This document shows, piece after piece, positions 13,625 to 32,000 of a stretch of 32,000 bases of DNA; the stretch's first letter is position 1, and each line of letters starts with the position of its first letter. Position numbers and translations under genes: made by a program. The DNA is from Bellilinea caldifistulae (GTDB taxonomy: Bacteria; Chloroflexota; Anaerolineae; Anaerolineales; Anaerolineaceae). The notes beneath the pieces were generated by a model. That model was given only the letters and a program-made list of their open reading frames with translations, had not been told where the DNA came from and searched no databases. The stretch covers positions 1 through 32,000 of the forward strand of contig NZ_LGHJ01000008.1 of the NCBI RefSeq assembly GCF_001306055.1, given 5' to 3'.

Positions 13625-14557
13625 ATGGAATTAGCCATCATGATTGAGGGGCAAAATGGTTTGAACTGGCCGCGCTGGAAGCGGATGGTTGCGGCGGTGG
13701 AGGAACTGGGCTTTACCGGTCTGTACCGCTCGGATCACTTTACCAACGCCCGACCGCCTGATAAAGATTCACTCGAATTGTGGGTCTCGTTGACCTGGTT
13801 GGCAGATCATACCCGCCGCATCCGCTTTGGGCCGCTGGTTACGCCGTTTTCATTCCGTCATCCGGCGCTGACGGCGCGCATGGCAGCCGCGGTGGATGAT
13901 CTTTCCGGCGGACGACTGACGTTGGGGGTTGGTGCCGGATGGCAGGAACGCGAACATGACCTGTTTGGCTTTGATCTGCTGCCGCCTCGCGAACGATTTG
14001 AACGTTTTGAGGAAGGGGTGATTGTCCTCAAGCAATTGCTTGGCGGTGGGCAGCCTGTCACCTTTAGCGGTAAGTACTATCGCTTGAAGGAGGCGCAGGT
14101 GCTGCCTGCACCCCAGCGCGGAGCGAAGTTGCCCATTTTGATTGGCGGCAATGGTAAAAAACGCACTCTCCCGCTGGCAGCCAGGTACGCGGATGAATGG
14201 AATGCAATCTTCCTCACACCATCCGCTTTCCGGGAATTGAACCATGAGTTGGATCACCTGATTCTTCAAAGCGGTCGCCAACCGGTTGAGGTACAGCGTT
14301 CGATGATGACCGGACTGGTGTTTGGCAAAGATCAATTCACCCTGCAGGAACGGCTAAGATTGTATGGAGGGGGCAACCTGACAGCGGCGGATTTACGCAT
14401 GCGGGGGCTGATTGTCGGCACCCCGACAGAAGTGTTGGAACAAATCCAGGCGCTGAGCGAAGCGGGTGTGCAGCGTTTGATGTTGCAATGGCTGGATCTG
14501 GATGACCTTGCCGGGTTGGAAGCACTGGCAAAGACTGTGCTGGAAAAGGTCAGTTGA
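13625..14557 (+). CDS. Luciferase-like monooxygenase (LLM) family, F420-dependent oxidoreductase type
   Basis: The product (MELAIMIEGQNGLNWPRWKRMV...GFTGLYRSDHF...GVGAGW...) is typical of LLM class F420-dependent oxidoreductases. GGGAGG SD precedes ATG 13625. Confidence 0.78.
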   Translation: MELAIMIEGQNGLNWPRWKRMVAAVEELGFTGLYRSDHFTNARPPDKDSLELWVSLTWLADHTRRIRFGPLVTPFSFRHPALTARMAAAVDDLSGGRLTLGVGAGWQEREHDLFGFDLLPPRERFERFEEGVIVLKQLLGGGQPVTFSGKYYRLKEAQVLPAPQRGAKLPILIGGNGKKRTLPLAARYADEWNAIFLTPSAFRELNHELDHLILQSGRQPVEVQRSMMTGLVFGKDQFTLQERLRLYGGGNLTAADLRMRGLIVGTPTEVLEQIQALSEAGVQRLMLQWLDLDDLAGLEALAKTVLEKVS

Positions 14558-16613
14558 CAAAATCCACCAGTCCACTTTTGTGCAAATCCTGAAAAACGGC
14601 TGGCAGGTCATTCATATAACTGAGATACAGGTAATTGCGGGCGCGGGTCATTCCCATGTAGTATAAGCGGCGTTCCTGCGACTCTTTACTTTGTCTTTGA
14701 GGGTCATTTTCGGAAAAGTTGAACGTGCGCTGCAGGAACGGCAGAATGACCGCTTCGAGTTCCAATCCTTTGAAGGCGTGTATCGTACTGATCTGAACTT
14801 CGTATCCTTTCAGCCGGGATTTCAGTTTATCAATATCATCTTTGAAACGGACTAAAATGCCGATTTGATTGTCCCGCAGTCCGCGGCTGCGCAGGGTTTG
14901 GATCGTATCCGTGATGAAGTTGAACTCATCCATTGCACCGCGGCACTTGCGCAGGAGCGGCCGCTGACCATGCCGCATGGTGTGGGGGTTCAATGCCGGA
15001 CTGACCGGTTCCCCCTCTTCTGCCAGTGATTGTTGAATTTCCTCGTAATTTTCAATCAAGCGGTAAGCAGCCTGATAAATTTCAAAAGTGTTTCGGTAAG
15101 GCACACGCAGCCAGCGGGTGCGCCCCACTACCGGGATACCTTTCTCCCTCCAACTGAAAAAGCGGTAGATACTCTGGGAGGGGTCATCGGATAAAAACAG
15201 GAAACCATCCGGTTTCAGGATTGTCTGAATCACTTTGAACCAGAGGGGAGCCCAATCCTGTGCTTCGTCTATCAGGATGGCGTCATAAGGCTCGAACTTT
15301 ACCTCGCCGCTTTGTAATTTTTGCAAGGTCAACCGATGAGCCTCCTCCCAATCCCAGCGTTGATGCGTTTCCAGAAATTGCTGATAAGCACGGTAGATTT
15401 CAAAAATTTTCTGGCGTTGTTCGCGGTTCAGGCGCAGGTCACGCCCGATGCCGCGCCGCTCGATCTTCAAGTAGGCGTCGGACTGTTCGATGCCCATGTC
15501 CCGTATCCACTTAACTTCACTTTCCAAATCGTTGGGCTTGAATTCTGCGAGGAAGGGCATGGAAGGACGATTTTCTTTCAACCAGTCCTGAAATTCAATC
15601 ATCTGGGGATCATCGAGCCGGGTGATAGAGCGGCAAAGTGCATCAAAAGTGAGCGGTTTAATCGGCGTGCCCTGAAAAGCGCGTTCCAGCATTTGCTGCA
15701 ACGCTTTGTTGTATGTAAAAACGCCAATCTTCCATTCGGGGTATTGGGCAGCTAAAAATTTCGCGCGCTGGATCATCACCAGTGTTTTACCGCTGCCGGA
15801 AAAGCCGCGCACCAGACGGATGGCGAAGTTCTGCACCAGTTGTTTGCCCTCATGTGGCAGTTCATCGGTTTCCACCGGTTGGGTTAATTGCTCAAAGAGG
15901 GCTTCCTGGCGTGCCTGTTCTTCCTGTCTGCCGGGACGCTGAACTTTTTGAGGTTCCTCTGCACGAATGGGTTCGGCAACGATTTTTTCCTGTTGCTCAT
16001 CCAGTACAATGACGCGTTGATCCTCGGTGGTAAATTCCAGGATGGGATAGATTGTCGAACGAACGTGGTCGAGTTCCTCGCGGGTCAGCGGACGCATGCG
16101 TTCGGCCGGGAAGAGGTTCTTCAAGCGGTTCAGTAGAATATCCGAATTTTCGAGATGGTATTTACCGAAGACAAACTCCTCTCCCCAAACTTTTTGTAAT
16201 TGGGTGATGGTGCTGCCGGGCAGGTTGGGCAGCACGGCTGCATAACTCCATGGGATGGCCTCACCCGGTAAGTCGCCGTTTCTCCTGCGGTTGAGTTGAT
16301 TGGAGAGATTGATGGCATAGTTGCGGGCTACCTCGACTGGATTTTTCTCCTCCCGTTCTTTATTGTTCCGTGTCAGAACAACAACCCAATGAGGGGTTGC
16401 CTGACGAACTTGAACCCAGTCCTTAACTTCTAAAACGATTACCCCGTAATTCGTCAGGATCGTAAAGTCGGGGTATTTCAGGTCACGGCTTTTGTGAATG
16501 GGCGTTTCAACGTAAACGGTGAACTCTTTGGGCAGATTGTTTTTCAAGTACCTGAGTGTTTCTTTTTCACCGAACGTTGCATCATGCCGAAGAATACCGA
16601 TGATTTCTGCCAC
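14550..16613 (-). CDS. NERD-domain (PD-ExK nuclease) + SF1 UvrD-like helicase fusion
   Basis: The N-terminal NERD domain has D49...E62-V-K64 (YPDFTIL...VLEVKDW). Helicase motifs are I GFSGSGKT, II ILIDEAQDW, III SDDPSQSIY, V TIHAFKGLE and VI YYMGMTRAR. The start is GTG with AGGGAGG 8 nt upstream. The 3' end overlaps the LLM gene by 8 nt in convergent orientation. Confidence 0.85.
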   Translation of the reverse strand: MAEIIGILRHDATFGEKETLRYLKNNLPKEFTVYVETPIHKSRDLKYPDFTILTNYGVIVLEVKDWVQVRQATPHWVVVLTRNNKEREEKNPVEVARNYAINLSNQLNRRRNGDLPGEAIPWSYAAVLPNLPGSTITQLQKVWGEEFVFGKYHLENSDILLNRLKNLFPAERMRPLTREELDHVRSTIYPILEFTTEDQRVIVLDEQQEKIVAEPIRAEEPQKVQRPGRQEEQARQEALFEQLTQPVETDELPHEGKQLVQNFAIRLVRGFSGSGKTLVMIQRAKFLAAQYPEWKIGVFTYNKALQQMLERAFQGTPIKPLTFDALCRSITRLDDPQMIEFQDWLKENRPSMPFLAEFKPNDLESEVKWIRDMGIEQSDAYLKIERRGIGRDLRLNREQRQKIFEIYRAYQQFLETHQRWDWEEAHRLTLQKLQSGEVKFEPYDAILIDEAQDWAPLWFKVIQTILKPDGFLFLSDDPSQSIYRFFSWREKGIPVVGRTRWLRVPYRNTFEIYQAAYRLIENYEEIQQSLAEEGEPVSPALNPHTMRHGQRPLLRKCRGAMDEFNFITDTIQTLRSRGLRDNQIGILVRFKDDIDKLKSRLKGYEVQISTIHAFKGLELEAVILPFLQRTFNFSENDPQRQSKESQERRLYYMGMTRARNYLYLSYMNDLPAVFQDLHKSGLVDFVN

Positions 16614-18051: not shown

Positions 18052-18309
18052 ATGACCACACAACCTACCCACCCACCCCCGGGCACCTGGAATGCCCGAA
18101 ACTTACTGACCGTGCTCGAAGTGGCGGAATGGGCACGTGTCCACCCTAAAACGGTTTACCGCTGGATTAGAGATGGAAAGCTTGAAGCGATCCAATTTGG
18201 ACCGCGCACATTCCGTGTGCCGGAGGATGCCATTGGCAAGTTTCTTCAGAAAACAGGATACAAAAAGGCGTCTGAACTCCCGAAGCCAAATGGGAGAGAA
18301 CGATCATGA
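18052..18309 (+). CDS. Excisionase-family / MerR-type helix-turn-helix DNA-binding protein
   Basis: LLTVLEVAEWARVHPKTVYRWIRDGKLEAIQFGPRTFRVPEDAIGKFL matches the excisionase-type HTH_17 pattern. AAAAGGAG SD precedes the start, and the stop overlaps the next ATG (ATGA). Confidence 0.75.
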   Translation: MTTQPTHPPPGTWNARNLLTVLEVAEWARVHPKTVYRWIRDGKLEAIQFGPRTFRVPEDAIGKFLQKTGYKKASELPKPNGRERS

Positions 18310-20462
18310 ACGGCTCCTCGATCCAGCCGGAGCGGGCGTGGCAGATGGCGCTTGACCAGTTGCGTCTGGGTATGCCAAAGGCTTCTTTTGACACCTGGGT
18401 GCGGGATACCAGCTTTGTCTCGTACGCAGATGGAGTTTTCACCATCGGTACCCCCAATGCCTACGGCCGAGAATGGCTGGCAAGCCGCCTGACCAGCACG
18501 GTGACCCGCATGCTGACAGGTATCCTGAGCCAGCAGGTGGAAGTGCAGTTTATCGTCGTTGAAGCGCCAGTTGATGAATATGAGGAGTCGGAAGGCGACG
18601 AGTATGCCCAACAGATAGCAATCCCACCTGAGCAAAACCAGGATGTGCTCGCGCTGCAGGCAGCCTACCAATCCGTCTACGACGAGATCGTCCGCCCCGA
18701 CCAGGTGATCGTCCTGCCAGGCTATTTTCTTCGCTTTATCCCACTGCTCGGTGTGGAGCTGGCCTGGCTGTATATTGGCTTTCGCCAGGCGGCCTACGAA
18801 GCTGGCGCTGCGAGGCAACCTGGAAAGAAGTTCGGCGCGCCAGCACAGAAGGTTGCCAGGTACTCCGGGATGAGCCTGCGCACCTTCCGGCGCTACTCTG
18901 CAAAACCCGATACCTGGCAGCGCTTACGCGGTTTGGTTACGGCTGTCGAGGATAAACCCCGCTGGCAGCACGGCAATGATAACCATCCTCATCGGACTCC
19001 CCGCTTCTACCGGGTGGCGATGACCTTGCCATTAACTCCCTCGGATGAGCTTTCACTCCGCGCCTGGCTGTACAAACGCCTGGCTGGAGGGAAAAGCCCA
19101 CTGGTTGTGATCCGGGCTGCTTTAGAAACCCCAGCAGATGAGCTGATCCCCTGGCAAGAGAATACACCATCGTCGAGAGATGTCAACGTCGAGCTTCATT
19201 CTGTCCATGATGTGCTGAGCGCCGTGTGCGGACCAATCTCAGAAAACGATCGCAAGCAATTCCAGGAACTGGCCGATCAGTTGGCGCAGCACCTGATGCC
19301 GCCCAAAGACCTGGTCTTCCTCACACACTACTTCGTGACCCGATGGCTGCCCAAACTGGGTCATGGGCAGGGTTGGTTCGTGGTGTTGCTGCGCGACCGC
19401 TGTTATATCAACCCTCGCACGGGCGAAATCCGGGATGAAGCACGGGTAGAACAGGGCTACGCAGAGATCGCTGGCTGGTTAGGCTTGAAACGCGTCAAAA
19501 CGATCTGGGAATGGCTGCGCAACGATGATGTCAGCCGGTTCGTCCGCGAGATAAGCCACGAGATTGGCGAATGGGAAGAATCGCCGCGCCGCTTCAAAGT
19601 CTGCCTGGGTGAACCGATGACCGATGAAGACCAGACCCGGGCAAATAAATCGTTAGCCCATAGAGGGTTTGGCGCAGTTGACACCTATAGCCAGCCGATT
19701 GGCGCGAATGACACCATTAGGAATGAGTGCACCAGCGGCTCCGTTGGCGCGGTTGACACCCATAATGGCGGAATTGACACCATTAGTGGCGCGAGTGACA
19801 CCATTAGGGATGGATATAGCAACGATCTTATTGGCGCAGTTGACACCCATAATGGCGCGATAGACACCGATCGTGGCGCGAATGGCACTCCCATTGGCGG
19901 TGATGACACCCATAGGGTTGGCGCGGATGTCACCTTTGATTGGCGCGAGTGGCACAGTTTAAATACCTTAGCACTTGGTTTGAATCACAAGAAAAATACG
20001 CCAACCACCACCGGCTCCGAGATCGAATCCGATTTGGAAATTCCAGCTAGCACAATCAGAAAGGGGGTGGTGGGCATGGAATGGAATTTATCGGAATTGC
20101 TCCTCCGAAACCGAATAAGCGTCAAGAACCAGGAGTTGCTCCTGGAAAATGGTTTAACAGCGCAGGCATTGGTTTCCTGGCTGCTTTACGCCGCCAGCAC
20201 AAGCGGAAATGGCATCCGTGATCCCATCGCCCATGCTGTCTCTCGATTAATCCCAGACCCAAGTCGAGGTGCAGGTGGCGTCTTTGATCAGCTATCCGAG
20301 GTGCCTGCCAACGAACTGGCGGACATGCTCCTCAGAGAAATCGAAGGACAAAGCCCCTGGAACCAGGTATGGCGAAAAGCAATGAAAGGTACACCTTGTT
20401 CACGACTGCGAACGCTGGCTGATCAGTTGGGTATACCGGTTTCGGACCTTGGTAATTGGTGA
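18306..20462 (+). CDS. Putative replication initiator with a DnaA N-terminal-like domain and an internal heptad/iteron repeat block
   Basis: The N-terminus (WQMALDQLRLGMPKASFDTWVRDTSFVSYADGVFTIGTPNAYGREWLASRL...VEVQFIV) parallels DnaA domain I. A central HTH-like segment reads KVARYSGMSLRTFRRY. Residues encoded by 19671..19961 form GxxDTxx heptads. Confidence 0.55.
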   Translation: MNGSSIQPERAWQMALDQLRLGMPKASFDTWVRDTSFVSYADGVFTIGTPNAYGREWLASRLTSTVTRMLTGILSQQVEVQFIVVEAPVDEYEESEGDEYAQQIAIPPEQNQDVLALQAAYQSVYDEIVRPDQVIVLPGYFLRFIPLLGVELAWLYIGFRQAAYEAGAARQPGKKFGAPAQKVARYSGMSLRTFRRYSAKPDTWQRLRGLVTAVEDKPRWQHGNDNHPHRTPRFYRVAMTLPLTPSDELSLRAWLYKRLAGGKSPLVVIRAALETPADELIPWQENTPSSRDVNVELHSVHDVLSAVCGPISENDRKQFQELADQLAQHLMPPKDLVFLTHYFVTRWLPKLGHGQGWFVVLLRDRCYINPRTGEIRDEARVEQGYAEIAGWLGLKRVKTIWEWLRNDDVSRFVREISHEIGEWEESPRRFKVCLGEPMTDEDQTRANKSLAHRGFGAVDTYSQPIGANDTIRNECTSGSVGAVDTHNGGIDTISGASDTIRDGYSNDLIGAVDTHNGAIDTDRGANGTPIGGDDTHRVGADVTFDWREWHSLNTLALGLNHKKNTPTTTGSEIESDLEIPASTIRKGVVGMEWNLSELLLRNRISVKNQELLLENGLTAQALVSWLLYAASTSGNGIRDPIAHAVSRLIPDPSRGAGGVFDQLSEVPANELADMLLREIEGQSPWNQVWRKAMKGTPCSRLRTLADQLGIPVSDLGNW
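19671..19961 (+). repeat. Eleven direct 20-21 bp repeats, consensus GGCGCGnnTGACACCnATAG (iteron-like)
   Basis: Hand-located copies start at 19671, 19701, 19746, 19767, 19788, 19833, 19854, 19875, 19896, 19920 and 19942. Spacings are 30, 45, 21, 21, 45, 21, 21, 21, 24 and 22 nt. The block is stop-free in several frames, since extra ORFs appear on both strands. Confidence 0.85.
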
Positions 20463-24749: not shown

Positions 24750-25673
24750 ATGACAGACACGCTGCACCTGAACGAATTCCAAGCGTATTTGTTAGCCGAG
24801 GATCGCTCGCCGGTAACAATCACTGGCTATTTGGGTGATGTGCGCTTATTCGCCCAATGGTATGAGGGGCATTATCGGGAAGCATTGATCCCTGCTTCTC
24901 TGACAAACGAAGCCGTACGCAATTATAAGCAGCACCTTCTTGACCAGGCTGCCAAACCCAAAACGATCAACCGGCGGTTGGCAGCTTTGGCAGCTTATGC
25001 TCACTGGCTGGAGCAGGCAGGATATGTAAAGAATGCACGCAATCCAGTCCAGGGGGTGAAGGCTGTGAAGGAAACCGCGCTTGCTCCCAAGTGGTTGGAT
25101 AAGAAACAGCGTGCAGCATTGTTAAGAGCGGTTGATAAGGAAGTTGATGATGCCGTGCGCCGTTACCCACGCCTACGATTAATGTATCTGCGCGACGCAG
25201 CGATCGTAAAACTGATCCTGTTTGCCGGCCTGCGAGTAGGAGAAATTATCCAGTTGCGTATGAGCGACATTGTTTTGGATGAGCGAAAGGGAAGCGTAGT
25301 CGTCCGGGAGGGGAAAGGTACAAAGAGGCGCGAGATCCCGCTGAATGCCAAAGCGTGCAAAGCTTTGCTCGATTATATGCAAGTGAGACCAGACATAGAA
25401 AGCAACGAGCTTTTTCTTGGCCAACGTAATGAAGGCGTGCAGAGCAAGACCATCCAGCGGGCTGTACAACGCTTTGCGAAAAAAGCAGGGCTCAAAATGG
25501 TTACTCCTCATACCCTGCGCCATAGTTTTGCCAAAGCTTTAATCGACGCAGGGGTATCCCTGGAAAAGGTTGCGACGTTGCTTGGGCACAGCAACTTGAA
25601 CACGACCCGGATTTATACAACTCCGGGGGTGCAAGATTTAGAAGACGCGATAAATGAGTTGGAAGATTTTTAG
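24750..25673 (+). CDS. Tyrosine recombinase / integrase (XerC/D-like)
   Basis: Has an N-terminal SAM-like domain and the catalytic pattern AGLRVGE ... HTLRHSFA ... LLGHSNLNTTRIYT (R, H-x-x-R, H, Y). Confidence 0.9.
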   Translation: MTDTLHLNEFQAYLLAEDRSPVTITGYLGDVRLFAQWYEGHYREALIPASLTNEAVRNYKQHLLDQAAKPKTINRRLAALAAYAHWLEQAGYVKNARNPVQGVKAVKETALAPKWLDKKQRAALLRAVDKEVDDAVRRYPRLRLMYLRDAAIVKLILFAGLRVGEIIQLRMSDIVLDERKGSVVVREGKGTKRREIPLNAKACKALLDYMQVRPDIESNELFLGQRNEGVQSKTIQRAVQRFAKKAGLKMVTPHTLRHSFAKALIDAGVSLEKVATLLGHSNLNTTRIYTTPGVQDLEDAINELEDF

Positions 25674-25981: not shown

Positions 25982-26473
25982 TTATGACCATCTCGTTAAT
26001 CGTTCGCTACATTCCTCGGCGGGTAATCTTGCGCCTGATTCGAGCATTCGCCTGAGGGCTGTGGCGGCTTGCCCTGGCGTGAGAGCCTTGAAATGCACCA
26101 TCTCATCCAATAACCAGAGAACGCCATGCACTACAAGACCGTTAGCGTTGGCTAGCTCATTGAGCCGCCGATCCCCAGTCACGAGGGTTGCATCCAGCAG
26201 CTTGGCTAATAACAATGCAGCTAGGTCGATGATAGAAAGCCCTCGATGAGCTTGACGCAATTGGATTAGTTCAACCACCTGCTCAGCAGGCAGTCCGTGC
26301 GCTCTGAGTCCCAATACTTCTAGAGTCTCCCATCTGGGTCGAATGAGCTCTGGAATAGCAAAATCCGGGATCAAAAACTGATAAGGGAGGCGGAAAACCT
26401 CCACCAGTACGCCGCCATCTTCGAGGTCGATCCAAATATTGGTGTCAGTGACCAAAACCGACTGCAACGCCAT
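25982..26473 (-). CDS. PIN-like domain protein (putative toxin/nuclease)
   Basis: Acidic PIN pattern: VTDTNIWIDL near the N-terminus, IIDLAALLLA, and TGDRRL. Overlaps the upstream XRE-ImmA gene by 29 nt. Confidence 0.6.
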   Translation of the reverse strand: MALQSVLVTDTNIWIDLEDGGVLVEVFRLPYQFLIPDFAIPELIRPRWETLEVLGLRAHGLPAEQVVELIQLRQAHRGLSIIDLAALLLAKLLDATLVTGDRRLNELANANGLVVHGVLWLLDEMVHFKALTPGQAATALRRMLESGARLPAEECSERLTRWS

Positions 26474-27497
26474 CCTGTTGGAATGCCTCCGCCACCCAGT
26501 GCAGTTGTAAAGGTTCGCCGAGCAACTCTTTTGCTCTGGAACGCGAGATTACATCCTCCGCCAAAGCCCTATAGATAAGACGCTCCATGCGTAAAGGCTT
26601 TTCACTAGATAGCGCCTCACCCGGCTCCTGGCGATGCCAGCCATTGGCTCGAAAGCGGTGGAAAAGCCTCGTAGCGGCATTCTCTGAGATAATGCCTAGC
26701 TCTTTGGCTCGGAAGATCCAGGCTTGCATGCTCATACCGTACTTGTGCTTGAGCAAATACAGCTCGTTCATGTCCAGTGTAGTACGCCTGGAGCCCAGTT
26801 CGAAGCGGACTGCCTGCGCCGGGACCAGAAAAGCCCCGACAAACCGATGACAGGCAGGTTCGGGATCGAGTTCTTCTTTAATATCCAAGATCAAGTGTCC
26901 TAATTCGTGCCCCAGGTTGAAGCGCTGCCGGTCGCCAGGAAGCTCAGCCTTCGATACGATTACTGGAATACCATCAGCCATGAAAGTGCAGGAGTCGAAA
27001 TGCTCAAACCCCGAGACCAACCCCACTTTTATGCCTTGATCTTCAAGCACTTGAGTCAGGTTTTCGATTGGATCAAGGCCCAGGTTCCAGCTTTCGCGCA
27101 AACTTAAAGCAACGTCTTCTACCTGCTCTATCGCTTGTATCGAATATACGGGCAGGTTAACCGAGCGTCTTTCATCCGGGAAAAGGCTTTCGACCTCTAA
27201 GTATCGTTCTAGCCACTCTTGAATCCGCATCTGAATCGCTTCTTGCTCTTTTACACCCAGCGCGGCATGTTTGCGATACGCCTGTAACCGGACCGATATC
27301 GTATAGGGACGAAACAGGAAATCCATCGATACGTTCAGCGCCTGCGCCAGACGCAGCAGAACACTCGAGCTGGGGATATCCAGATCCCGCTCGTACTTCG
27401 AAATTGCCATTGCACTGATCTCAGCCTTTTCTGCAAGGCTTCGTAAGCTCATATTGTTCGCCTTACGGGCCTGTTTGATGCGCTGACCGATGGTCAT
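26445..27497 (-). CDS. Fused XRE-family HTH / ImmA-IrrE (COG2856, M78) metallopeptidase-domain protein
   Basis: The N-terminal HTH is IKQARKANNMSLRSLAEKAEISAMAISKYERD. The zinc-peptidase HExxH is LGHELGHLIL. AAAGGAGG SD precedes the start. Confidence 0.8.
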   Translation of the reverse strand: MTIGQRIKQARKANNMSLRSLAEKAEISAMAISKYERDLDIPSSSVLLRLAQALNVSMDFLFRPYTISVRLQAYRKHAALGVKEQEAIQMRIQEWLERYLEVESLFPDERRSVNLPVYSIQAIEQVEDVALSLRESWNLGLDPIENLTQVLEDQGIKVGLVSGFEHFDSCTFMADGIPVIVSKAELPGDRQRFNLGHELGHLILDIKEELDPEPACHRFVGAFLVPAQAVRFELGSRRTTLDMNELYLLKHKYGMSMQAWIFRAKELGIISENAATRLFHRFRANGWHRQEPGEALSSEKPLRMERLIYRALAEDVISRSRAKELLGEPLQLHWVAEAFQQDGVAVGFGH

Positions 27498-27521: not shown

Positions 27522-27559
27522 GGTTTACATTATAGCATAATTGTTTTATTTTGTAAACC
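27522..27559 (-). promoter_or_regulatory. Near-consensus promoter (TTTACA-N17-TATAAT) embedded in an 8 bp inverted repeat (operator candidate)
   Basis: On the minus strand, -35 TTTACA is at 27552..27557 and -10 TATAAT at 27529..27534, with a 17 nt spacer. GGTTTACA (27522..27529) and TGTAAACC (27552..27559) are perfect inverted repeats covering both hexamers. Confidence 0.65.
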
Positions 27560-27636
27560 GATTTGACCGAAGAGAGCGACCTCTCGCTGACCGCCGGGCA
27601 GCAACGTTTGAAATTTTGATTATTTGCAGTATTTCT

Positions 27637-28368
27637 TCAAGCTTGGTTCGATAGCAACGCTAATCTGGGCAATTCATCCCATGTCCGGCCGTCCAACTTT
27701 CGTCCTGATTTCTTCTTGTTTGTTCCTCCCCACTGTTTGAAAAAGAACGGAACGTTGGCATCTAGGCATTGATCTCGAATATCACAAACCCAAGATTCTT
27801 GAATGGGGCGAGCTCCTGGTCCAGATTCACCACCTACAATTACCCAATGAATCCCCGATAGATTTAGATTTACAAGAGGACCCAATAATGGTTCGAGTGA
27901 AAGAAATCTTATTGCGGCGTGTGTCTCCCGTAAGTGGTCTATTCTAAATGCGTAGTTTTGATTTTCTACACTCACTCCCATCCATACATTCTCAGGCCAA
28001 TACAGTTCTTTATCAAGTTCCAATAATCTATCAGAGCGCTTGGTAAGTACCTGAAAAGTGTGCCAGTGGGCCTTAGTCATCGTATCGAAAACCTTTTGGA
28101 TGAACTCCAGCGGGACATCTTCATGGAAAAGGTCACTCATCGAATTGACAAAAATCATTTGCGGTTGTTTCCAGTTTAGAGGAATTTCTAAGGCATGATC
28201 ATGTAGAGTAAGATCGAAACCGTTACGATAATTTGACTGCCCCATTGCTTGAAGCCGTTTAGCCATTCTTTCCGCGTAGCAATGTTTACATCCCGGACTA
28301 ATTTTTGTGCAACCCGTTAACGGATTCCAGGTTGATTCTGTCCATTCGATGGCAGAATTGGAAGCCAT
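27637..28368 (-). CDS. DUF5131 / phage Gp37-Gp68 family three-Cys-motif protein
   Basis: The N-terminus [30 protein letters not shown] has C20-x6-C27-x2-C30. Later blocks are [26 protein letters not shown] and FFFKQWG. AGGAGG SD precedes the start. Family name is from memory. Confidence 0.75.
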
Positions 28369-28422
28369 AAGAATTCCTCCTATCGATACACCTGTAATAA
28401 TTATGGCACAAATGTTCTTGTA

Positions 28423-29523
28423 TTATATATCGACTTTGAACTCGACAACCGCATCGTCTGGAAATGCACCTCTGCGTCGTTTCTTGCCACAAACTTTGTT
28501 AGGGTTCACACATAAGAGATCCTGTTCTTCTAAAAGTCTTAATGCTTTTTTCATTTGGCTACTTGTATAAGGCGTCTGATTTTCAACAAAAACCCGAATT
28601 TCACTTACTTGGACTTTTTGTGAGGTAAAAGCAGATAAGATTAGTTCAGACAAGGCATTAGACGAATCCATTTCAAACAACACGAGCTGATTAGGATTTG
28701 TCGCATCCGAAAATCTAAACCCACTTTCAGGATCAACTTTCCAAAAAGCTTCTTTCATCCGAGCATGACCAAGCGGATGGTTAGTTGCAAAGAAAAGGTA
28801 ATAGAGTACCCGATCTCGCTGGTCTCTCATCTCAAAATATCGTACAAACCGAGCATGATTTTGGAGTTGTGATAAATATAAACGGCGTAAGGCTTCCAAT
28901 CGATCCCCACCTGAACGAATTACATCCAAAACCTGGCGGGTGCCAAACAGATCAATAATGTGCTGCTGTGTTTGTGGATCGGAGCGTTCGATGAAACGAT
29001 TTACAAAGTCAATCATGACATTAACGAATACTTCTGTATGCGGGTTCTGCAATAATTGCTTTACCAAATCAAAGGAGAGACCTTTAAAACCGAAAGGATC
29101 AATGAAGGCAAAAATTGGAGCAAGATTAGAATTAGCCCGTCTTGCTTGGTCAAAAATCTGTTCCAAAATACAATGAAATTCGCCAGTTTCTACGATAAGC
29201 CTGAAATTAGGTGGAATGGTTAGCAGAGCGATTTCTTGCTTAAGATGCTCGATTCGGTCCGGGTTTGTGTCAATGAAAAGGAACACAACCTCGCTGTTCT
29301 GCAATAAAGAATGATGTTTTATGGCTTCTTTCAATGCTATGATAGGTGAGCCATCTTCTCCCCCTATATAACGCCCGGGACCGCAGAAACCATCTAGATA
29401 CATGATACGAGGGATCTTCTGCCCCAAGATGCCAAACCACGCTCCTAAGTAACGACGCAGGATTTCGTGTTTTATTTGCGTATGCGGTTCGATTTTCCAT
29501 ATTGTTTCTGACGATTTTGCCAT
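28423..29523 (-). CDS. Three-Cys-motif partner protein TcmP-like (Rossmann methyltransferase-like motifs)
   Basis: The N-terminus WKIEPHTQIKHEILRRYLGAWFGIL is as I recall for TIGR04474. MYLDGFCGPG is motif-I-like, VVFLFID has a motif-II acidic residue, and FAFIDPFG is motif-IV-like. Ends 54 nt upstream of the DUF5131 gene. Confidence 0.65.
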   Translation of the reverse strand: MAKSSETIWKIEPHTQIKHEILRRYLGAWFGILGQKIPRIMYLDGFCGPGRYIGGEDGSPIIALKEAIKHHSLLQNSEVVFLFIDTNPDRIEHLKQEIALLTIPPNFRLIVETGEFHCILEQIFDQARRANSNLAPIFAFIDPFGFKGLSFDLVKQLLQNPHTEVFVNVMIDFVNRFIERSDPQTQQHIIDLFGTRQVLDVIRSGGDRLEALRRLYLSQLQNHARFVRYFEMRDQRDRVLYYLFFATNHPLGHARMKEAFWKVDPESGFRFSDATNPNQLVLFEMDSSNALSELILSAFTSQKVQVSEIRVFVENQTPYTSSQMKKALRLLEEQDLLCVNPNKVCGKKRRRGAFPDDAVVEFKVDI

Positions 29524-29687
29524 TAACCGCTCGATTGTCTCTCTCTGTGATCAACTATCACAAATGTTTACCGATTGACGCGGAAGATTGATTGCTCTTG
29601 GATCGAATTAACGATCACATAACTATTGGAAAGGTGCTCGGCAGCCTGAAAGAGTAGTCGATCTTCATGTAATGATTGCTAGATTAC

Positions 29688-30431
29688 TCATGGCCGTTGA
29701 GAAAAATCATTACATTCTACAAATAGTTCTCCTCGCTCTTGATCTGTTATCGAACGAGTGTGAAATTGGAGTCCCCAATTTCTTAGCACATCGTATTTTG
29801 ACCATATTTTAGGATAAAAATGACGAAATATAAATCGGACAAAATGCCCTATACTAATTGGACCAAATACCGGCCAACGACACTCCTCGTTAAGCAGGTG
29901 TAAATGCGAGGCTGGATGTGTGTCAGTTTGTGATCCGGGGTCAAAATCGAATCGGAAGGGAGTTGAAAGCCGTAGCAGGTTTTGCAGACGGGAAAATTCC
30001 GATTCTGAAATCGCAGCTCTTAATGCATCAATTTCCTGAGTGAGCAACAAGTCGAACAGAGTGACAAAATCGTGTCCTGTCTGTATGGACTCAATATCCG
30101 AAGAAGTAATGACCAAGGGGCAGGGATAATAACAATTTCGATGTTTCGACAAAGTATTATTTGTATACAAATACCCAAATTGGATAATTGACCCATCAAA
30201 TAGCATACAATGATAATGCCTATTTTCTATCAGGTTTCGATATTCAGTTATTGTCGCAAACCTTCCAACCAAAGCATCAAATAGTCTATCTGGAGCATTT
30301 GCCCAGGTCAGGATTGAATCGTGACCAGAGTCCCGAATAATTGCCGAATTCCAATCAATAGCTAACCCCTCCTCTAAAAGAAAAGAAAGCAATTCGTTTA
30401 TCTGTCTTACCAGTGCTCTAGCGGTCATCAT
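29688..30431 (-). CDS. Hypothetical protein, helicase partner (possibly DUF2290-like)
   Basis: Start set at ATGATG 30431/30428, which overlaps the helicase stop within ATGATGACCGCTAG. Has a conserved-looking C-terminal block RFDFDPGSQTDTHPASHLHLLNEECRWPVFGPISIGHFVRFIF. The family assignment is unverified. Confidence 0.55.
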   Translation of the reverse strand: MMTARALVRQINELLSFLLEEGLAIDWNSAIIRDSGHDSILTWANAPDRLFDALVGRFATITEYRNLIENRHYHCMLFDGSIIQFGYLYTNNTLSKHRNCYYPCPLVITSSDIESIQTGHDFVTLFDLLLTQEIDALRAAISESEFSRLQNLLRLSTPFRFDFDPGSQTDTHPASHLHLLNEECRWPVFGPISIGHFVRFIFRHFYPKIWSKYDVLRNWGLQFHTRSITDQERGELFVECNDFSQRP

Positions 30432-32000
30432 CCTCACCCGATCTCCCAAACAGCTCTTCCAATTGGGTTCGAAGTTCGCTAGGCAAATTTTCGATGGCAA
30501 GATCTCCACTTGTAACTTGGGCAACAAAGTCCGCGAGGGTTTGCTGCATTTTCTGAACCTTCTCTCTTTCCTTGGGGGTCATGTCACGATGGATTTTTCG
30601 TAATCTTTCGAGTTCTACGGGAGTAGGAACTCGAAATCTAAGTTGGTAATTATCCAAAACCACCTTATCTACTTCAGACTTCAGTCCTTCCATAGCTGTT
30701 CCGCACCCAAACAACCTAACCCACGCCTTAGATCGAGTTATTGCAGTGAAAATAATATTGCGGCGCTTGCTTAACTCAAATCCTTCAAATGCATACTCGC
30801 TGTTCAAAACATAAACCATTGGGGCTTCATTACCTTTAGCCCTATAGATTCCGGTGATTGCAACCGACTCATCCTTGAAAAGTTCATCACGACTGCTGGT
30901 TACGCCTGCAAGATGAGTAGGGATATTTAATTGATTTAACTCTCTAAACAATATGGCAGCCTCCTCTTGGGCAGTTAAAGGATCAGAGAGGATAATTAGA
31001 ATATCTCGAAATTCCAATTCGTCTTCGGTCAGATTCTTTTTTATCTCACGTGCGACTGCTTTAGCTTGTGTAACTTTATCGGGAAACACCTGACAAAGTA
31101 TTGCATCATCTGAATCAAGTAATTGTTCGAAATAATCTGGATACGAATCCGAACGGCGTTTGAGAGCTACCTCTTGCCCTGGAGCAAGTGCACCAGATAC
31201 GACATGATACCCAACTTCTTCCCAGAGCCCCTGGGGATCATTGAAATATTGAACCAAACCTTGGTCGCGCTTTATGCCAAATCCAAGAGCATGAGCGATT
31301 GTTAATGCCCAGGGGGTGTTACGGTAACAAACGGGTAAAACAATATCCTGAGATGGCGATCCTTTCTCATTACGTAGCTCAGAGACTCGAGGCGAACCGC
31401 TAGAATCTTTTCCGAACAATTCGGAAGGTGGCACCATCGAATAACGACTGAGGTTTTGTAATTCGTCGTAAGCGTATACTATTCGTTTGGGTTCACGGGT
31501 CGCAAGATATGCCAACTCAAAGAAGGATTGTGGGAAATCCTGCGCTTCGTCTATAAGGACTACATCAAATATTGGCTGGAATTTCGCTTCACCGACTTCT
31601 TGTAGCAATTCTTGGCATACACCATCAAAAGCTGTAGGAGCGCCAAATGTACTTTTTGCATAATTGAAATCCTTGGGCAAAACGCCGTGAGCCATGGCAA
31701 CTTCGGAATAAAAGCCGGGCTGATTCGAACTACCCCAAGCATGAATGATGCGCAAATTTTCCCAGTTGGGTTCATCATTAATTTGATCGAAAGTGAAACG
31801 TCTGACAAGATCCTCAAATTGTTGATAGAGTGATCGGGTTTGAAAAGTAATCGCGATCTTCCATTCCGGTTTTAGTACATGAAGATAAGCTGCTTTCAAA
31901 GCCAAAACGATCGTCTTGCCTGAACCCGCTAGACCGCGAATTCTCTGCACCCCATCAGGCATTTCAACCGCGGCACTATTTTGCCATTTATCCAAATTAG
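30418..32000 (-). CDS. SF1 (UvrD/DUF2075-like) helicase, 5'-partial at window edge
   Basis: The frame is open to nt 32000. Motifs are Walker A IRGLAGSGKT, motif II VLIDEAQDF, VCYRNTPW, GIYRAKGNEAP and FTAITRSKAW. PEWKI after Walker A is shared with the 14550..16613 helicase. Confidence 0.8.
   Translation of the reverse strand, partial: NLDKWQNSAAVEMPDGVQRIRGLAGSGKTIVLALKAAYLHVLKPEWKIAITFQTRSLYQQFEDLVRRFTFDQINDEPNWENLRIIHAWGSSNQPGFYSEVAMAHGVLPKDFNYAKSTFGAPTAFDGVCQELLQEVGEAKFQPIFDVVLIDEAQDFPQSFFELAYLATREPKRIVYAYDELQNLSRYSMVPPSELFGKDSSGSPRVSELRNEKGSPSQDIVLPVCYRNTPWALTIAHALGFGIKRDQGLVQYFNDPQGLWEEVGYHVVSGALAPGQEVALKRRSDSYPDYFEQLLDSDDAILCQVFPDKVTQAKAVAREIKKNLTEDELEFRDILIILSDPLTAQEEAAILFRELNQLNIPTHLAGVTSSRDELFKDESVAITGIYRAKGNEAPMVYVLNSEYAFEGFELSKRRNIIFTAITRSKAWVRLFGCGTAMEGLKSEVDKVVLDNYQLRFRVPTPVELERLRKIHRDMTPKEREKVQKMQQTLADFVAQVTSGDLAIENLPSELRTQLEELFGRSGEDDDR

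Follow-up and report, generated by a model that had tools for sequence, protein, structure and literature searches.

An AT-rich four-gene block in a defence island of Bellilinea caldifistulae very probably joins two autonomous two-gene modules

At one end of a 32,000-nt stretch of the Bellilinea caldifistulae genome (contig NZ_LGHJ01000008.1, positions 1–32,000; hereafter, the window), genes for a helicase, a DUF2290 protein, a TcmP protein, and a DUF5131 protein lie side by side on the minus strand, in a block (27600–32000) that is markedly poorer in G+C than the remaining sequence. An initial annotation proposed that these genes form a single, unnamed system composed of a DNA-modification pair and a motor/effector pair. 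The question raised by the locus is hence whether the four genes constitute one system or two. Our analysis argues for the latter: the block very probably consists of two autonomous two-gene modules, Helicase+DUF2290 and TcmP+DUF5131, joined within a defence island. What is new here is one instance of a named system beside one instance of a catalogued candidate, and not a new four-gene system. The features of the block are as follows.

30418 to beyond 32000, minus strand: helicase; the C-terminal 526 of its 714 aa are inside the window, the N-terminus lies past the window end
30418–30431, minus strand: overlap of exactly 14 nt, ATGATGACCGCTAG, shared by the end of the helicase gene and the beginning of the DUF2290 gene, read from the sequence
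29688–30431, minus strand: DUF2290 protein, 247 aa
29524–29687, minus strand: spacer between the two modules, 164 nt
28423–29523, minus strand: TcmP, 366 aa
27637–28368, minus strand: DUF5131 (Gp37/Gp68) "three-Cys-motif" protein, 243 aa

The sequence past the window end was read from the source contig DF967971.1 (assembly GCA_001050215.2; locus L002). The compositional contrast described initially is borne out, with a G+C content of 0.423 at positions 27600–32000 vs. 0.531 at positions 1–27500; all other 4.4-kb segments within 1–27600 have G+C of at least 0.482, while 500-nt segments of the block range from 0.406 to 0.448. The four genes have G+C of 0.40–0.44 and third-position G+C (GC3) of 0.34–0.39; the BREX genes immediately upstream have GC3 of 0.66–0.84 (BrxL, 0.66), and G+C is 0.52 in the XRE gene downstream. 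On the source contig, the low-G+C stretch covers precisely the helicase, DUF2290, TcmP, and DUF5131 genes. The partial superfamily 1 (SF1) helicase and its 247-aa partner overlap by 14 nt, as had been noted, which suggests translational coupling; TcmP and DUF5131 are separated by 54 nt.

The linkage between the two pairs was assessed using two sets of loci. The first was anchored on TcmP and comprised 80 loci from GTDB genomes (39–59% identity, with flanks of up to 10 kb to either side) representing Chloroflexota, Acidobacteriota, Myxococcota, Nitrospirota, Planctomycetota, Proteobacteria, Bacillota, Actinomycetota, and other phyla. DUF5131 is adjacent to TcmP in 77 of these loci, two of the three exceptions being at a contig edge, whereas a helicase or DUF2290 homologue is found in none of the 80 (1,155 kb of flanks, relaxed thresholds included). 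The second set, anchored on DUF2290, comprised 80 metagenomic loci, 75 of which are distant (at most 46% identity). The helicase is adjacent in all 30 DUF2290 loci with enough upstream sequence, always first and in the same orientation, as in the window; TcmP is present in none of the 75 distant loci. The co-inheritance of modification and effector genes suggested by the proposed analogy with Dnd, Ssp, Dpd, or BREX is thus not seen, neither in the cross-linkage (0/80 and 0/75) nor in the decay of the pairs described below, and none of the four proteins matches a Dnd, Ssp, or Dpd model of PADLOC.

All four genes occur together only in contigs of 85–89% identity that also share the BREX and XRE/PIN flanks, hence, these represent the same island in close relatives. 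The expectation that the genes travel together therefore holds only among relatives of at least 85% identity. The DUF2290 proteins next in similarity (73%, 65%, and 64% identity) are accompanied by the helicase and not by TcmP; nearby lie a type III restriction system, rluB/scpB, or an ATP-binding cassette transporter. Reciprocally, the TcmP proteins next in similarity (69% and 64% identity) come with DUF5131 and without the helicase; nearby lie SNF2/NOV_C and sacsin-like genes, a SocA/Panacea gene, and a type III restriction system.

Within close relatives, the pairs decay independently. In one of them (L165), DUF2290 is split into pieces of 48 and 172 aa, while TcmP and DUF5131 are intact. 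In two others (L084 7541–8772 and L085 10947–11348), homology breaks off at approximately codon 75 of TcmP, and the sequence goes on at once into the 3' end of the integrase gene: DUF5131, XRE-M78, PIN, and YjzC are deleted, the TcmP remnant has no start codon, and the helicase and DUF2290 are intact. Such loci should not survive if TcmP and DUF5131 gave self-protection against the helicase pair. The position of the junction also hints that the end of the integrative element, or its integrase, mediates rearrangements here.

Profile searches place the first module in a family that already has a name. The helicase is SF1 UvrD-like, with a Pfam UvrD_C_2 match, and the full 714-aa protein matches the PADLOC model PDLC03002 "Helicase" from end to end (797 bits, residues 1–706 on profile positions 1–705 of 707); weak matches to GajB are also seen. 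Across 28 helicase homologues, the Walker A (GLAGSGKT) and Walker B (LIDEAQD) sequences are retained, as are the SF1 motifs further along. The N-terminal ~130 aa form a conserved domain with no recognisable family; NERD or another nuclease was considered for this region and rejected, as it has no Pfam match and its conserved residues show no clear nuclease motif. Of the families named for the block in the initial annotation, PF10053, TIGR04474, PF07505, and UvrD (as UvrD_C_2) are matched, and NERD in the helicase N-terminus is not. The 247-aa partner is a PF10053/DUF2290 protein (118.5 bits, cutoff 25) and matches PADLOC PDLC02998 DUF2290 (117.9 bits). Its AlphaFold2 (AF2) model is confident (pLDDT 91), and a Foldseek search of this model against PDB yields no fold match (best E 0.08, probability 0.08), so that the effector chemistry is not assignable. 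Invariant residues of DUF2290 include D79, C104, R160, H176, R185, S193, and G195, with H97 and H196 nearly invariant. Sequence searches of PDB with each of the four proteins of the block gave nothing meaningful.

Judging from these profile matches, the helicase and DUF2290 genes are a member of the Helicase+DUF2290 anti-phage system, named Helicase-DUF2290 in PADLOC and Rst_HelicaseDUF2290 in DefenseFinder. The locus resembles the system of Rousset et al. in that an SF1 UvrD-like helicase of ~710 aa is followed by a DUF2290 protein of ~240 aa, with end-to-end PADLOC model matches, the same gene order with overlapping reading frames, and a location in a variable defence region beside a mobile element. 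It differs in its host, here a thermophilic member of Chloroflexota, there Enterobacteria carrying P4-like satellites, and in the position of the pair directly downstream of BrxL; DUF2290 is only 25–33% identical to plasmid-borne homologues. When cloned as two genes, Helicase+DUF2290 from the P4-satellite hotspot specifically inhibits T7 (Rousset et al., 2022, PMC9122126), the resistance to T7 having been shown only for the Klebsiella pneumoniae system (PMC9122126); deletion of Helicase+DUF2290 in Pseudomonas aeruginosa MPAO1 has phage-specific effects (preprint 10.64898/2026.09.16.752016), and the role of the domains was described as unexplored (PMC10952713). By analogy with Gabija (GajA/GajB) and Hachiman (HamA/HamB), which share the logic of an SF1 or SF2 helicase with a small effector, the helicase may serve as an ATP-driven nucleic-acid sensor or motor, and DUF2290 as the effector. 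The comparison does not go beyond analogy; neither the sequence nor the predicted fold of DUF2290 is related to that of GajA (OLD/TOPRIM) or HamA (PD-(D/E)xK).

For the second module, the methyltransferase-like character noted initially for TcmP agrees with a structural model. TcmP matches TIGR04474 (212 bits, cutoff 53) and, over residues 1–340, PADLOC PDC-M30A (186 bits), and has a C-terminal winged helix-turn-helix (wHTH; PF22560) at residues 271–341. All 50 of the 50 listed Foldseek matches of its AF2 model (pLDDT 86) in PDB are class I methyltransferases or aminopropyltransferases (best E 1e-5, probability 0.93–1.00); the additional C-terminal domain keeps the TM scores modest (TMt up to 0.55). 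Canonical methyltransferases have motif I of the form D/E-x-F/G-x-G-x-G and, in amino-methyltransferases, motif IV of the form (D/N/S)-P-P-(Y/F/W). In TcmP, motif I is D44-G-F46-C-G48-P49-G50, with D44, F46, G48, P49, and G50 at least 95% conserved; the motif IV position is occupied by D142-P143-F144-G145, also at least 95% conserved, and non-canonical. TcmP models as a class I methyltransferase-like Rossmann domain, of the type dependent on S-adenosylmethionine (SAM), with a C-terminal winged helix. Homologues in Gordonia phages are labelled "methyltransferase" by SEA-PHAGES annotators.

DUF5131 matches PF07505 (357 bits) and the PADLOC models PDC-M41B (417 bits) and PDC-M30B (401 bits). The C-x6-C-x2-C cluster reported initially is indeed present as C20-x6-C27-x2-C30. 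In 78 homologues, its three cysteines and G179-G180-E181, a GGE SAM-binding motif, each reach at least 95% conservation. The match to TIGR04471 (rSAM_mob_pairA) has E 2e-23 and is below threshold (83 bits, cutoff 355); Pfam Radical_SAM (PF04055) is not matched, and the cysteine spacing is CX6CX2C, not the canonical CX3CX2C. In RadicalSAM.org, DUF5131 is Megacluster-5-2 of the radical SAM superfamily, beside the DNA repair enzyme spore photoproduct lyase (5-3) (PMC9477430). The protein is hence a predicted radical-SAM-superfamily enzyme. With radical-SAM enzymes acting on nucleic acids or nucleotides, such as spore photoproduct lyase and prokaryotic viperins, it shares the three-Cys cluster and GGE; unlike them, it has the CX6CX2C spacing, no PF04055 match, and an obligate methyltransferase-fold partner.

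Taken together, these matches identify TcmP+DUF5131 as the already catalogued PADLOC candidate PDC-M30. Compared with PDC-M30/PDC-M41 and the TIGRFAMs pairing of TcmP (TIGR04474) with a three-Cys DUF5131 protein, the pair shows no material difference and is an ordinary candidate member. PDC-M30 is a "guilt-by-embedding" candidate, and, in line with the initial statement that the pairing is recognised and has no assigned function, no functional study was found in the literature searched (TcmP, DUF5131, PF07505, TIGR04474, GMT-wHTH). The initial annotation had made a single four-gene system depend on conserved linkage of the genes and on the lack of a match to an existing named system, among other conditions; the linkage proves not to be conserved, and one pair belongs to a system with a name.

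TcmP is widespread, with more than 3,200 clusters across at least 10 phyla and also in temperate phages. The order TcmP–DUF5131 is the commonest (60 of 77 loci). Identity to the proteins of the window is 67% for DUF5131 and 48% for TcmP, DUF5131 being the better conserved partner in all 69 pairs compared, and the two identities correlate across pairs (r = 0.67), as expected of a conserved catalytic subunit and a faster-evolving recognition subunit. The pairs are poorer in G+C than their own flanks in 58 of 66 loci, as is common for mobile defence genes. Their neighbours in cellular genomes include type I, IIG, and III restriction, Hma, MADS, DISARM, and DpdF (Dpd) genes, as well as TIR-Argonaute, TIR, DarT, and deaminase genes; each family accounts for at most 6 of 128 neighbours, hence, the pair has no hidden third component. 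Of the TcmP pairs most similar to this one beyond the island, one (L170 1657–7683) adjoins a type III restriction system and another XRE-M78 gene, and a second (L169 1–7581) adjoins an SNF2/NOV_C helicase and a 1,392-aa sacsin-like (PF25794) protein, which together look like an uncharacterised defence candidate.

Among 50,697 phage records, TcmP is found in 13 and DUF5131 in 181, mostly without TcmP. In temperate Gordonia phages such as ThankyouJordi, DUF5131 is accompanied by PDC-M30A, with the immunity repressor on one side of the pair and the integrase on the other, a position typical of lysogeny-expressed defence genes. In the cyanophage Ssp-JY39, a Synechococcus phage (L173 2498–4116), DUF5131 pairs with PDC-M41A, a short form of TcmP. 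In Gordonia phage Bakery (L172 921–3475), the replication module contains DUF5131 in translational coupling with a C5-cytosine DNA methyltransferase. These three different methyltransferase-fold partners point to a two-step, SAM-dependent nucleic-acid modification. TcmP might bind nucleic acid via its wHTH and present or alkylate a base in the SAM-binding domain; DUF5131 would then perform a radical-SAM step on the same substrate, so that the pair would act as a two-enzyme nucleic-acid modification machine.

Several observations weigh against a division into two independent anti-phage modules. The four genes share one composition that is sharply unlike both flanks; their uniformly low G+C and GC3 fit a single acquisition and leave room for co-expression. 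No consensus promoter or terminator was found by scanning the 164-nt spacer, and, in the block, such sites are no more frequent than in shuffled sequence, hence, the scan does not decide between one operon and two separately transcribed ones. One distant Helicase+DUF2290 pair (L137 1–1765, 35% identity) has a convergent DUF5131 gene immediately adjacent; it is the sole independent juxtaposition among the 75 distant loci, on a 1.8-kb contig too short to show TcmP. In addition, a lactococcal Helicase+DUF2290 homologue gave no protection against the phages tested (PMC11381338), no experimental test of PDC-M30 was found in the literature searched, and the mechanisms given above for both modules are ones that we infer. 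A lineage-specific four-gene system, in which TcmP and DUF5131 would mark host DNA and the helicase and DUF2290 would attack unmarked DNA in the manner of restriction–modification, Dnd, or BREX, could draw on the common orientation, short gaps, and uniform composition, on the arrangement kept in several metagenomic contigs at 85–89% identity, and on the L137 contig as a second DUF2290/DUF5131 adjacency. We nevertheless consider it very unlikely, given the lack of linkage in the 80 TcmP loci and the 75 distant DUF2290 loci, and its loss already at 64–73% identity. Furthermore, the relatives that keep the helicase and DUF2290 without TcmP and DUF5131 would carry a lethal combination if self-protection needed the modification, another relative keeps the TcmP pair with a broken DUF2290, and the validated Helicase+DUF2290 system functions with its two genes (PMC9122126). 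The low G+C common to both modules suggests joint entry into the lineage, most simply on one segment of ~5 kb. Joint entry does not amount to joint function, and neither module would depend on the other.

The block might also be viewed as part of a replication or structural module of a prophage or the integrative element, since it adjoins an element with integrase, ParA, FtsK, and DnaA_N-like genes, and DUF5131 is named after the phage proteins Gp37 and Gp68 and matches phrog_2045, a PHROG family with no functional category given. However, the helicase matches only a generic "DNA helicase" PHROG family (55 bits), DUF2290 and TcmP match none, and tblastn with DUF2290 gives no match in the 50,697 phage records; moreover, the composition of the block differs from that of the element, which, in relatives, abuts another point of the block. 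This makes such an origin extremely improbable. The role of the second module is harder to settle. TcmP+DUF5131 could be a modification or repair module serving mobile elements, e.g., by hypermodifying their own DNA against restriction, in which case its location in islands would reflect mobility only. The many phage DUF5131 genes without TcmP, the Bakery gene coupled to a DNA methyltransferase in a replication module, the proximity of Megacluster-5-2 to spore photoproduct lyase, and the status of PDC-M30 as still only a candidate are in its favour. On the other hand, cellular pairs are flanked mainly by restriction, Hma, MADS, DISARM, TIR, and DarT genes, the pair of temperate Gordonia phages sits between immunity repressor and integrase, and, in P. 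aeruginosa, 68.8% of strains carrying PDC-M30 fall in the phage-resistant group, albeit with a weak correlation (PMC10855318). We regard a role outside defence as possible, if rather doubtful. A stand-alone immune or conflict module, in which the radical-SAM enzyme, guided by its methyltransferase-fold/wHTH partner, would install an undescribed DNA or RNA modification, and which might also have been recruited to Helicase+DUF2290 in the Bellilinea lineage, can be put forward only tentatively, as a rather unlikely reading.

The surroundings of the block agree with the initial view that a PIN/XRE-ImmA module and an integrase mark a neighbourhood where defence genes accumulate, and BREX is found upstream in addition. 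The features on the integrase side are as follows.

26445–27497, minus strand: XRE helix-turn-helix and M78 (ImmA/IrrE) protein; HTH_3 and Peptidase_M78 matches; match to PADLOC RmrA, the RosmerTA antitoxin, at 169 bits
25982–26473, minus strand: PIN/DUF3368 protein; PIN and DUF3368 matches; overlaps the end of the XRE-M78 gene
24750–25673, plus strand: tyrosine integrase; Phage_integrase 130 bits; edge of the integrative element

Directly upstream of the helicase, past the window end (L002 1–6883), lie the C-terminus of PglX and genes for a GmrSD_N protein, PglZ, and BrxL. From gene order in the part of the locus that is visible, BREX type 1 may be assigned. Its G+C of 0.53–0.66 indicates a composition unrelated to that of the four-gene block. 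The GmrSD_N/DUF262 protein between PglX and PglZ is reminiscent of BrxU. The island runs from BREX (PglX, GmrSD-like, PglZ, BrxL) through Helicase+DUF2290, TcmP+DUF5131, and the RmrA-like XRE-M78 with PIN to the integrase. The XRE-M78 gene has its own near-consensus promoter-like site, TTTACA-17-TATAAT, at 27557–27529; the PIN/DUF3368 protein is its likely toxin partner, and the two probably form a RosmerTA-like toxin–antitoxin or defence pair, a separate putative module.

The integrative element carries ribbon-helix-helix (RHH), ParA, FtsK/SpoIIIE, and DnaA_N-like Rep genes; no convincing att-like direct repeats were found for it, and the window has no tRNA genes. The DnaA_N-like open reading frame (718 aa, 18306–20462, plus strand) contains, at 19669–19955, at least seven copies of the 21-nt unit TTGGCGCnnTTGACACCnATA, which could be iteron-like origin repeats in an initiator gene or a 7-residue coding repeat. 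Elsewhere in the window, among metabolic genes and outside the AT-rich block, a 687-aa protein (14550–16613, minus strand) has an N-terminal NERD domain fused to a UvrD-like helicase, an architecture typical of Nhi-like single-gene defence proteins.

The four-gene unit does not exist outside one lineage, and the locus is instead a clean example of independent modules stacked in a defence island beside an integrative element. DUF2290, the presumed effector of a validated system, has a confidently predicted fold without a solved relative. TcmP+DUF5131 is worth attention as a very widespread, obligate pair, for which the hypothesis of a two-step SAM-dependent nucleic-acid modification is directly testable. 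Both the chemistry of TcmP+DUF5131 and the nature of the DUF2290 effector are questions that belong to those families generally, rather than to this locus.

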